A DNA stretch of 3,631 nucleotides from a virus (Duplodnaviria > Heunggongvirae > Uroviricota > Caudoviricetes): the IMG/VR virus record IMGVR_UViG_2737471848_000031, one strand, 5' to 3'. Below, piece after piece: positions 1 to 1,510 of this stretch (position 1 is the first letter of the stretch; each line of letters starts with the position of its first letter). The notes below the pieces were generated by a model, which did not search any database, was not told where the DNA came from, and saw only the letters and a list, made by a program, of their open reading frames with translations. A program made the position numbers and the translations under genes.

Positions 1-192
1 ATGAACGGACAAATCTCAATTGTTCGACCAGGAGCATGTGACGATAGCGAGATACGCATGATTATTCGTCTGGCGAGGGGGAAAACAATAACTGTTCTCA
101 TTACTCCAGAAAATCTCGCATTAGCATTAACAGGAAAGTCAGACCTGCCAGTAGAGCTAAAGCTGCGAAATGTTGAGATTAAGGTGAAATAG
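1..192 (+). CDS. Hypothetical small phage protein (63 aa as listed); may be 5'-partial because it starts at the window edge
   Basis: ORF in the track. Its stop TAG (190-192) lies 2 nt before the ATG of the next gene, with a GGTGA Shine-Dalgarno-like motif at 183-187 serving that downstream gene, which suggests operon packing. I recognise no family. Confidence 0.5.
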   Translation: MNGQISIVRPGACDDSEIRMIIRLARGKTITVLITPENLALALTGKSDLPVELKLRNVEIKVK

Positions 193-194
193 CT

Positions 195-785
195 ATGACC
201 ACTTTTACCAATAGCAAACTAACAGACGAATACGTTTCAAATGCAACGTTGATTCGGCTCATTCTGTGGGCTGACCAGCACAATAGCCATTATGTTGTAG
301 CGGCTCTGCGCGAGCTACAGGAGCGCCGCAAGGCTGATAGTGCAGAACCTGTAAGCCAAACTTACAAGTTGCCAGTTAATACACCTTGCCAAGATGCGCC
401 AGCCCATATCTGGCTGCAAACGGCTGGAGTATGGCCAGAAGATGGCGAGTTAAGCGAATTAACGTGGTGCAGCCACAATCAACACCATGATGACACGCTA
501 TATGTTCGAGCTGACCTTGTGAATGGCAACTATCCGGCAACTCCGGATGGTTGGATAAGCTGTAGTGAGCGAATGCCTGAAATGGGAGAGCGACAATGCT
601 ATGTGTTAGCAGCTGACTTTAAAAACAACTACCCACCAAACATCCCCAACACTCAGGTCGGCGTATATGGCGACTGGTTTAATGATGGCAAGCCCACTTG
701 GGATGACGGTGATGGCGAAGACCTGTATCTCAAAGAGGTAACCCACTGGATGCAGCTACCAGAACCGCCGCAGGAGGTGAAATGA
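195..785 (+). CDS. Phage early-region protein with a DUF551-like C-terminal domain (196 aa); N-terminal half of unknown function
   Basis: The C-terminal segment (about nt 580-785; ...GVYGDWFNDGKPTWDDGDGEDLYLKEVTHWMQLPEPP) resembles the conserved end of DUF551 proteins common in enterobacterial prophage early regions. A Shine-Dalgarno-like motif lies 7 nt upstream of the ATG. The family call is from memory. Confidence 0.7.
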   Translation: MTTFTNSKLTDEYVSNATLIRLILWADQHNSHYVVAALRELQERRKADSAEPVSQTYKLPVNTPCQDAPAHIWLQTAGVWPEDGELSELTWCSHNQHHDDTLYVRADLVNGNYPATPDGWISCSERMPEMGERQCYVLAADFKNNYPPNIPNTQVGVYGDWFNDGKPTWDDGDGEDLYLKEVTHWMQLPEPPQEVK

Positions 786-868
786 TGAATTGGCCTGAAG
801 CATTCACCGCAGTTGGAGTTGCAATAGCGGTGGCATTTATTCTGTATTCGCTTTTCCGCTGGGGATAA
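782..868 (+). CDS. Candidate small hydrophobic membrane peptide (28 aa, MMNWPEAFTAVGVAIAVAFILYSLFRWG; 27 aa if started at ATG 785), absent from the ORF track
   Basis: A strong GGAGG motif at 773-777 sits 4-7 nt before ATG 782/785. The ATG overlaps the upstream stop (ATGA at 782-785). The stop TAA at 866-868 lies 4 nt before the next gene's ATG at 873. The peptide has a roughly 19-residue hydrophobic core consistent with one transmembrane helix. Confidence 0.35.
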   Translation: MMNWPEAFTAVGVAIAVAFILYSLFRWG

Positions 869-872
869 AGGA

Positions 873-1115
873 ATGTTCGCTCTGATTCAACGTGGTCAGA
901 TATACACGGACAGAGCCGGATACCCTGTGGTGATTACTCGCAGCACTGAGCACTCAGTGTTCTTTCGACGCATGGACGGACACTCCGGTCGAGTACGCAT
1001 CAGTGAATTCAACAACCAGTTTGAACATATTGATCACCAGGAATACCGACAAATACTGGCAGAAACAGAGCAGGAAGCTCACCTGAAAAAATTACGCGCC
1101 ATGAAAAGGAAGTGA
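873..1115 (+). CDS. Small phage protein (80 aa), possibly DUF4222-like, with a basic C-terminus
   Basis: ORF in the track, co-directional and closely packed with its neighbours, with AGGA immediately upstream. The sequence looks like a conserved small prophage protein. The DUF4222 suggestion is a weak recollection. Confidence 0.65.
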   Translation: MFALIQRGQIYTDRAGYPVVITRSTEHSVFFRRMDGHSGRVRISEFNNQFEHIDHQEYRQILAETEQEAHLKKLRAMKRK

Positions 1116-1118
1116 AGA

Positions 1119-1265
1119 GTGAATAAAGCATTTGAACTATGGGTCCACCAGCGTTATGGCAGTCGCTATGACCTGACGCGAGATGTTGACGTCTTCTACT
1201 GTCGTGAAATTGTGAAACGAATGTTTGAAGTGTGGTGCCACTGCCGTGGGCTGAGTGTTGTGTGA
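1119..1265 (+). CDS. Possible small Cys/His-containing protein (48 aa, GTG start: VNKAFELWVHQRYGSRYDLTRDVDVFYCREIVKRMFEVWCHCRGLSVV)
   Basis: The frame is open from just after the TGA at 1113-1115 to a TGA at 1263-1265. AAGGA at 1105-1109 lies 9 nt before GTG 1119. It fills the otherwise non-coding gap between the 80-aa gene and xis, and its stop overlaps the xis ribosome-binding site. It is not in the track because it lacks an ATG start. Confidence 0.25.
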   Translation: MNKAFELWVHQRYGSRYDLTRDVDVFYCREIVKRMFEVWCHCRGLSVV

Positions 1266-1273
1266 GGTAATGC

Positions 1274-1510
1274 ATGGGCAATGTGATTCAACTGACTCCC
1301 AATGAATGGGTTTGTGAAAGCGTTCTTATCGCAATTACCGGGCTCAAACCAGGCACAATTCTTCGGGCCCGGAAAGAATGCTGGATGGTTGGAAGAGAGT
1401 ATATTCACGTATCACCAGACGGTAATCCAAAGCCTTCCAGTGAATGTATGTATAACAGAAAAGCAATAGATGCCTGGGTCGCCTCAATGAAAAACAAACA
1501 ACCCAGGTGA
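1274..1510 (+). CDS. xis: Excisionase-like protein (DUF1233 / putative excisionase family), 78 aa
   Basis: It lies immediately upstream of and co-directional with the integrase, and its size is typical of Xis. The sequence (LTPNEWV...ITGLKPGTILRARKE.WM.GREYIHVSPDG) resembles excisionase-like proteins of E. coli lambdoid prophages. GAGG at 1264-1267 lies 6 nt before the ATG. Confidence 0.7.
   Translation: MGNVIQLTPNEWVCESVLIAITGLKPGTILRARKECWMVGREYIHVSPDGNPKPSSECMYNRKAIDAWVASMKNKQPR

Follow-up and report, generated by a model that had tools for sequence, protein, structure and literature searches.

We analyzed a stretch of 3,631 nucleotides (nt) of the Caudoviricetes record IMGVR_UViG_2737471848_000031, hereafter the window, whose first 1265 nt carry five small genes (open reading frames, ORFs, A to E) in front of an excisionase gene (xis) and an integrase gene (int). 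With a probability of about 0.75, nt 1-1265 belong to a lambdoid prophage inserted in the host gene yecE and form the 'exo-xis' accessory segment, the promoter-distal part of its early-left (pL-type) operon. Two features of this segment go beyond current annotation: a conserved membrane peptide of 28 amino acids (aa) encoded by ORF C, and the predicted Tudor-like barrel-plus-helix architecture of the DUF4222/RgdR family, to which the ORF D product belongs. The region is otherwise ordinary and already known, as the sequence of phage BP-4795, which carries the same block, has been deposited and the protein families are catalogued. The program-made ORF list holds nine + strand ORFs in series; those tabulated were lettered A to F, followed by int and yecE. 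The first six are:

ORF A: 1-192, + strand, 63 aa, phrog_1222
ORF B: 195-785, + strand, 196 aa, acidic mosaic with a C-terminal DUF551 domain
ORF C: 782-868, + strand, 28 aa, single-pass hydrophobic peptide
ORF D: 873-1115, + strand, 80 aa, DUF4222 (RgdR family)
ORF E: 1119-1265, + strand, 48 aa, GTG start, phrog_3871
ORF F (xis): 1274-1510, + strand, 78 aa, excisionase DUF1233, XisR-like

Assignment to the exo-xis region

Nucleotides 1-1249 are 99.6% identical to the ORF6-ORF3 region of the Stx1-converting phage BP-4795 (NC_004813, AJ556162). In this phage the genes follow each other on the same strand in the order N, ssb-like, cIII, kil, gam, bet, exo, DUF1317, DUF1382, ZapA-like, DksA-like, ea22-like, A, B, (C), D, E, xis and int. 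The A, B, C and D proteins are 100% identical to their BP-4795 counterparts and E is 93% identical; gene order and spacing are equal, and both blocks read straight into xis and int. The two differ in the xis/int pair, the BP-4795 Xis being only 51% identical, and in the length of E, which counts 44 aa in BP-4795 versus 48 aa in the window. The order ea22-like, A, DUF551, D, E, xis, int is also found in phages JLK-2012 and YYZ-2008, in Stx1 phages and in yecE prophages of RefSeq genomes. Because the same block sits in BP-4795 after N, gam, bet, exo and the ea22-like gene, it was assigned to the exo-xis slot, the equivalent stretch of which holds ea22, ea8.5 and orf55 in lambda. The flanking genes are in agreement with this position, xis and int lying downstream in the window and exo, bet and gam upstream in BP-4795, JLK-2012 and YYZ-2008. 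The block resembles the exo-xis regions of lambda and Stx phages in its place on the early-left transcript, after the recombination genes and before xis, in its small, dense and presumably dispensable genes, and in a mosaic content that differs between lambda and the Stx phages. The first-pass annotation had proposed, from the letters alone, a lambdoid early operon reading into xis-int, and the synteny with BP-4795 bears this out.

In lambda and Phi24B, the exo-xis region is reported as dispensable, and it affects lysogenisation, prophage induction and host gene expression (PMC3824215, PMC10789677). The published phenotypes concern other genes than A to E. By analogy, the early-left promoter would drive A to E only after infection or induction, N-type antitermination would carry RNA polymerase into xis and int, and the five products, while dispensable, would modulate host physiology and the choice between lysis and lysogeny. 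The exo-xis region is among the least understood parts of lambdoid and Shiga-toxin phages and it affects prophage induction, hence toxin release. The window contributes no new kind of system to it. If anything undescribed was to be found in the window, the first-pass annotation had expected it in this block; the DUF551 domain in B, the DUF4222 domain in D, the PHROG families of A and E and the deposited BP-4795 sequence contradict that expectation. Its statement that no biochemical function could be assigned to any accessory product still holds after profile searches.

Several observations weigh against the exo-xis assignment and the roles attached to it. The window starts at ORF A and holds neither a promoter nor an N/nut region, so that operon membership is deduced from synteny in relatives. 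Comparison of A to E with lambda ea22, ea8.5, orf55, orf61, orf63, orf60a, ral, ea10 and kil gave nothing better than E 0.1; the analogy in function with the exo-xis genes studied in other phages therefore extends to position only. The AlphaFold2 model of B, built on a 27-sequence alignment, has a pLDDT of 36.8 and no usable fold. Finally, the pairwise similarity between D and the regulator RgdR, described below, is limited to E 0.003 over 27 aa, with 23% identity overall and RGQ in the place of RGD.

Coding status and transcription signals

The intergenic gaps from A to F measure 2, -4 (an ATGA overlap), 4, 3 and 8 nt, and the xis-int spacer measures 55 nt. A Shine-Dalgarno-like site was found 2-7 nt 5' of every start from B to int, within the preceding gene; ORF A begins at the window edge and the scan covered the starts of B to int. 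The compact co-directional arrangement read from the letters alone, with those same five gaps, and the embedding of ribosome-binding sites in upstream coding sequence were thus both recovered. A consensus scan of the + strand over nt 1-1566 revealed neither a sigma-70-like promoter nor an intrinsic-terminator-like site. The layout shows the five accessory genes as translationally coupled on one strand. The scan result fits a single transcript, a consensus scan being no proof of it, and dense co-directional small genes with no consensus promoter or terminator within are compatible with an exo-xis region. No Rfam family matched anywhere in the window at E<=1.

A, B, D, E and F match Pfam or PHROG families with E values of 1e-16 to 1e-41. 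The ratio of non-synonymous to synonymous changes (pN/pS), calculated against diverged copies in related loci, ranges from 0.03 to 0.68 over all six ORFs: 0.2-0.45 for A, 0-0.5 for C, 0.15-0.34 for D, 0.1-0.68 for E and 0.03-0.28 for F. Because of these family matches and of the deficit in non-synonymous changes, A to F are taken as real genes; judged from their sequences, all six are under purifying selection and are not chance ORFs. The minus-strand or alternative-frame ORFs at 1009-1281, 1484-1735, 1196-1408, 376-540 and 1302-1469 matched no PHROG family, and that at 1302-1469 is missing from some sister loci.

The ORF F product scores 112.3 bits with PF06806 (DUF1233), for which the cut-off is 22, and also matches phrog_539 ('excisionase') and the PDB entry 2kvv, a 'putative excisionase' (E 8e-4). 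With a score above the threshold and a location directly 5' of a tyrosine integrase gene, it is identified as a DUF1233 excisionase. The accessory block therefore consists of five genes at 1-1265 and not of six; of the 'five or six' accessory genes first counted, A to E stand, and the sixth, at 1274-1510, is the excisionase itself.

Conserved cassette and exchanged slot

A search with the int protein retrieved 597 related IMG/VR stretches, and the best 80 of these 597, with at least 90% identity, were analyzed; counts for C were made over 78 of them. The occurrence of each element was as follows:

xis: 80 of 80, at a fixed position relative to the int start
E: 79 of 80, start 447 nt 5' of the int start
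D: 78 of 80, start 693 nt 5' of the int start
C-type peptide: about 44 of 78, end 4 nt before D
A: 1 of 80
B middle module: 0 of 80
full DUF551 domain: about a dozen of 80

When the C peptide is lacking, a DUF5406 gene takes its place (about 34 of the 78 same-int prophages; for example L025:3935-4276). The positions of A and B are occupied by DUF551 modules, Ea22 variants, MazG-like fusions or other genes. The DNA at window positions 1-211, 518-586 and from 733 on is conserved; on the alignments, these junctions mark exchange points. At the sequence level, the region is thus made of a conserved cassette (C, D, E, xis and int) and a swap slot at the positions of A and B. The core holds the DUF4222 gene, the gene of the 48-aa protein, xis and int, often with the hidden 28-aa peptide, and the DUF551/Ea22 slot is what is exchanged. 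A comparison of this kind had been suggested together with the anti-defence proposal, and invariance across related phages had been named as an argument against that proposal. The outcome is divided: A and B vary among same-int prophages, whereas D and E are invariant in presence and spacing in 78 and 79 of the 80, respectively.

Among the loci inspected, the neighbouring slot of L025 also holds, 5' of the DUF5406 gene, a gene for a 275-aa Band_7/SPFH lipoprotein (L025:3036-3863), of which a disrupted copy is present in L060. This SPFH lipoprotein is a possible candidate for superinfection exclusion or membrane defence.

ORF D and the RgdR family

The D protein is basic (pI 9.9) and matches PF13973 (DUF4222) over aa 4-54 with 60.2 bits, well above the cut-off of 27. 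It is predicted to fold as a five-stranded Tudor/SH3-like barrel followed by a long basic C-terminal helix. The structural matches of the model are generic barrels, many eukaryotic Tudor and KOW domains among them, and a Foldseek search of PDB and BFVD returned nothing at E<=0.001. The modelled fold of D is thus a generic Tudor/SH3-like barrel. The Tudor-like domains at the C-terminus of UvrD/PcrA and at the N-terminus of CarD share with D only 4-9% sequence identity with non-significant Foldseek scores, and their fold is common to many unrelated Tudor, KOW, SH3 and MscS domains.

The studied member of this family is the virulence regulator RgdR (ECs1581), a 99-aa protein encoded by the satellite-like island OI-51 of E. 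coli O157:H7, which activates the LEE1 promoter and represses motility (PMC3378721, PMC10877973). RgdR acts on LEE1/ler, and its residue R20 is functionally important (PMC3378721). Since it binds DNA weakly and non-specifically, it has been proposed to be a co-factor (PMC3378721, PMC10877973). ECs1581 of the Sakai genome matches the same PF13973 model with 82 bits (E 2e-23). In the alignment, R20-G21-D22 of RgdR correspond to R7-G8-Q9 of D, the arginine and the glycine being conserved. The RGD tripeptide, to which RgdR owes its name, is absent from D, whose Q9 is invariant in a 37-sequence alignment of the D subfamily. With RGQ, which is nearly invariant in its subfamily, D is therefore a paralogue of RgdR, that is, a family member and not an orthologue.

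D and RgdR have in common PF13973, an R-G-x-[IL]-Y-x-D-x-x-G motif that aligns between them, a core of barrel type, a C-terminal helix of basic character, a small size, an overall basic composition and a location on mobile elements. They differ in length (99 versus 80 aa), the N-terminal extension being found only in RgdR, and in genetic context, as RgdR adjoins a primase gene in its satellite island and not xis. By analogy, D would most likely act as RgdR does, as a small basic transcription co-factor. On the model, its barrel may dock on a host protein, for which the beta lobe of RNA polymerase is a possibility, while the basic C-terminal helix would contact DNA. Docking of D on RNA polymerase is a model-based lead compatible with what is known of RgdR, and not a result. 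The barrel with its basic helix nevertheless offers a structural lead on the way in which type III secretion and motility of pathogenic E. coli might be controlled by RgdR-family proteins.

ORF C, an unannotated membrane peptide

The C peptide (MMNWPEAFTAVGVAIAVAFILYSLFRWG) contains one hydrophobic helix. Its ATG overlaps the stop codon of B in the ATGA sequence, and its Shine-Dalgarno site (AGGAGGTG, dG -11.1), located 2 nt 5' of the start, is the strongest of the block. An ORF of 27-28 aa ending 4 nt 5' of D occupies this position in the same-int prophages counted above (about 44 of 78). The length, the N-terminal M-x-W-P/R-D/E-A, the hydrophobic core and the C-terminal [CF]RWG are common to at least five amino-acid variants. 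The pN/pS of these copies is 0.36-0.50 at a pS of about 0.6, and three haplotypes carry synonymous changes only. By tblastn, C is present in 88 phage records. It was annotated as a coding sequence in none of the nine annotated records examined, and it matches no Pfam or PHROG family. Wherever the gene 5' of C was identified, it encoded a DUF551 protein. C is presented as a putative small inner-membrane peptide that would be produced in step with B.

Some metagenome gene calls join C to DUF4222 (109-aa P0125). In 933W-type Stx2 phages (Stx2 II, L092:2501-2578), a C-like ORF is likewise unannotated and overlaps the upstream stop codon; about 160 nt 3' of it, in the place of DUF4222, lies a hok/gef-like gene ('MokW-like host killing', L092:2738-2950).

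The most far-reaching reading, which we regard as speculative and rather unlikely to hold as a whole, joins a hypothesis on D to an observation on C. In the hypothesis, the DUF4222 family, D and RgdR included, could form a phage and satellite class of Tudor-like proteins which bind the beta lobe of RNA polymerase, in the manner of CarD and the C-terminal domain of UvrD, and which reprogram host promoters through their basic helix. The observation is that C, missed by all annotations examined, is a conserved gene translationally coupled to its upstream gene in at least 88 phage records.

According to another explanation, the block or one of its genes is expressed from the resident prophage and serves lysogenic conversion or superinfection exclusion, for instance by C blocking the entry of phage DNA or being toxic. 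C is indeed a conserved single-pass membrane peptide, the C-like ORF of 933W-type phages lies about 160 nt 5' of a hok/gef-like gene, the Band_7/SPFH lipoprotein is found in the neighbouring slot of other same-int prophages, and RgdR is active from an uninduced island. These indications are countered by the lack of any promoter-like site upstream of or in the block and by the translational coupling of C to B inside an early operon. With the toxic peptides of type I systems, C has in common only the single hydrophobic helix; C matched no Pfam or PHROG family as a type I toxin or hok/gef-like protein, no PADLOC match and no antisense RNA were found, and no Rfam family typical of type I toxins is present in the window at E<=1. 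We consider lysogenic conversion the most improbable of the explanations weighed here and retain the placement of C in the exo-xis segment.

ORF E and its association with xis and int

The E protein matches phrog_3871 (E 1.5e-33) and no Pfam or PDB relative of it was found. Phages of Escherichia, Klebsiella, Salmonella (Fels-1) and Citrobacter account for the 44 phage records that carry it. Four contexts were inspected, and in these E lies just 5' of xis/int modules of differing types, while in the other listed rows its position in the record matches; in Fels-1 and in a Klebsiella phage it is the final gene before xis/int. The length of E tracks the xis type, with 44 aa beside BP-4795-type xis and 48 aa (tail GLSVV) beside phiP27-type xis. 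A putative zinc-binding site composed of C28, C40, H41 and C42 was rejected, since L087 has R in the place of C40 and L010 and L011 show the motif as CCHC.

The constant company of D and E with xis and int raises the question of whether they are directionality or stability co-factors of Xis/Int recombination. In favour of such a role, D is kept in 78 and E in 79 of the 80 same-int prophages, always 693 and 447 nt away from the start of int, they also precede the BP-4795-type xis/int despite a Xis of 51% identity, and E stands directly 5' of xis/int in Fels-1 and the Klebsiella phage, with matching record positions elsewhere. However, an AlpA-type excisionase, unrelated to DUF1233, adjoins E in the Klebsiella phage, and phage phi467 carries C-D-E and an integrase with no detectable DUF1233 xis, which weakened the case for a specific pairing of E or D with the DUF1233 excisionase; no partner-specific co-variation was seen. 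D and most of E are of BP-4795 type in the window, yet its xis/int are of phiP27 type. Because the adjoining xis types vary and BP-4795-type D and E serve phiP27-type xis/int here, the linkage of D and E to xis looks positional and not partner-specific. Moreover, the DUF4222 member RgdR adjoins a primase gene and acts on host promoters, and a position at the end of the operon together with shared junction sequences could explain the linkage. A recombination co-factor role is thus very unlikely, and D and E are better seen as the promoter-distal end of the exo-xis segment.

ORFs A and B and the counter-defence hypothesis

The A protein is basic (pI 9.5) and matches phrog_1222 over its full length (E 5.9e-41); no Pfam, NCBIfam or PDB relative was found. 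It is 100% identical to ORF6 of BP-4795, where the gene begins 1 nt past the stop codon of the ea22-like gene. Rare in the same-int prophages (one of 80), A is present by tblastn in 231 phage records. Some of these are virulent siphophages, with nuclease genes close to A, so that its role is not bound to lysogeny. Relatives with 65-70% identity are carried by the virulent E. coli siphophages bob, PaulFeyerabend and KarlBarth, where they adjoin endonuclease or Holliday-junction-resolvase genes. Residues 27-60 of A show a weak match (E 7e-5 over 34 aa) to the C-terminus of a 'DNA methyltransferase' PHROG, with only the tail of the profile covered.

The B protein is strongly acidic (pI 4.6, net charge about -16) and is composed of three parts:

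B helical leader: aa 1-50, nt 195-344, + strand, two or three alternative versions in the alignment
B middle module: aa 51-112, nt 345-530, + strand, acidic and near-invariant in the alignment
B DUF551 domain: aa 113-196, nt 531-782, + strand, C-terminal, PF04448

PF04448 (DUF551) is matched over aa 119-193 and over the entire 68-position profile with 73.1 bits, above the cut-off of 22; B also matches phrog_60, phrog_924 and phrog_12449. In the alignment, the DUF551 core is hypervariable and bounded by the conserved PDGWISCSERMP and THWMPLPEPPQE. Among 1.84 billion representative proteins, 823 match B at E<=1e-3, and each of the three modules matches on its own and at changing positions, the matched proteins measuring 86-418 aa and belonging to hundreds of protein clusters. 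The part of B upstream of DUF551, at first described as one unrecognised N-terminal domain, thus resolves into two independently shuffling modules. A protein identical to B is encoded on at least 1000 contigs. DUF551 also occurs in sister prophages, joined there to a dATP/dGTP pyrophosphohydrolase domain or to Ead/Ea22. In one E. coli yecE prophage (G1/2, L002:6294-7028), a PF04447 dATP/dGTP pyrophosphohydrolase domain is fused to the same DUF551 and replaces the B leader and middle module; the first 43 codons of B persist 5' of this fusion as a pseudogene.

DUF551 is a portable domain known from YfdS and from the Ea22 variant V2 (PMC10834534, PMC4776307). YfdS of prophage CPS-53 and Ea22 V2 of Stx phages resemble B by a C-terminal DUF551 above the Pfam threshold and by varied N-terminal partners, and the Ea22 C-terminal domains compared in PMC10834534, the DUF551-bearing V2 included, are acidic like the B protein. 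B differs by its own leader and middle modules and has no Ead/Ea22 coiled coil. The phenotypes reported for the family are all indirect: a yfdS mutant is sensitive to peroxide and overexpression of yfdQRST inhibits replication. B might be an acidic adaptor whose exchangeable DUF551 core would bind a variable partner.

One or more of A, B and C could alternatively be early counter-defence proteins, directed against restriction, abortive infection (Abi) or similar systems, with the DUF551 core diversifying in an arms race. In relatives, the block belongs to an early operon beside Gam-type functions; B is acidic, with a hypervariable core and modules reshuffled over hundreds of architectures; DUF551 is fused to dATP/dGTP pyrophosphohydrolase in sister prophages; A is shared with virulent siphophages, and the A/B slot is variable among same-int prophages. 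All these pointers are circumstantial. Against them, PADLOC-DB 2.0 contained no family matching any of the six proteins at E<=1, NCBIfam gave no match, and there was no PDB sequence relative, no solved anti-defence protein being resembled. Phage phi330 carries a copy of nt 524-2835 of the window (3' end of B through int) at about 74.5% identity, with the diverged DUF551 3' end, C, D, E and xis, and its DefenseFinder analysis reported no anti-restriction-modification system (PMC12502783). Gam, present in all phages of that study, is the only anti-defence factor named there that applies to phi330 (PMC12502783). In addition, variability flanked by conserved junctions is a general property of lambdoid mosaicism and does not of itself point to an arms race. 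Counter-defence is accordingly unlikely, and the candidate host-takeover or anti-defence module of the first-pass annotation found no backing in the PADLOC and NCBIfam searches or in the phi330 report. Assignment of A and B to the variable part of the exo-xis segment is preferred.

Origin of the window and integration site

The remaining features of the window are located downstream of xis:

int: 1566-2879, + strand, 437-aa tyrosine integrase of the phiP27/PhiR49_2 type, yecE-specific
attR junction between prophage DNA and yecE: 2880-2910, no strand, at the ends of linear phage records
yecE: 2906-3631, + strand, host gene, 5'-truncated, DUF72 (PF01904)

A profile search identified the Arm-DNA-bind_2 and Phage_integrase domains in int. 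The xis and int DNA is 94.5-97% identical to that of phiP27 and PhiR49_2. The 3' end of E contains a recombination junction, at about nt 1249. As the DNA is of BP-4795 type to its left and of phiP27/PhiR49_2 type to its right, the window is a recombinant with a crossover in the 3' end of E. The linear records of PhiR49_2 and phiP27 end at window positions 2910 and 2908, respectively, which places attR there.

The right end of the window is the chromosomal yecE gene, annotated yecE/DUF72 in RefSeq and followed by yecN-cmoA-cmoB in complete E. coli genomes. The PF01904 match (147 bits) covers positions 22-215 of the 217 of the profile, indicating that the N-terminus, about 21 positions, is gone. 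RefSeq calls a 256-aa DUF72 protein that starts within the 3' end of int with an overlap of 19 nt; from the sequence, this call suggests either a phage-supplied N-terminus or a doubtful start.

The arrangement of the whole window was found in no complete RefSeq E. coli genome and in no IMG/VR contig. The best match among complete E. coli genomes covers 91% of the window with 96.4% identity, and an exact 100-nt probe over the E/xis junction matched one IMG/VR contig, which is devoid of A and B. Finally, a mini-ORF of 17 codons (MKYVSSYRSWASGGIDG) at 1520-1573 lies in the xis-int spacer and stops just inside the int start. The spacer variants of same-int loci preserve its ATG and frame, and about one third of them have a silent AAA-to-AAG change. 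It could serve int as a leader or coupling ORF, or have arisen by chance.

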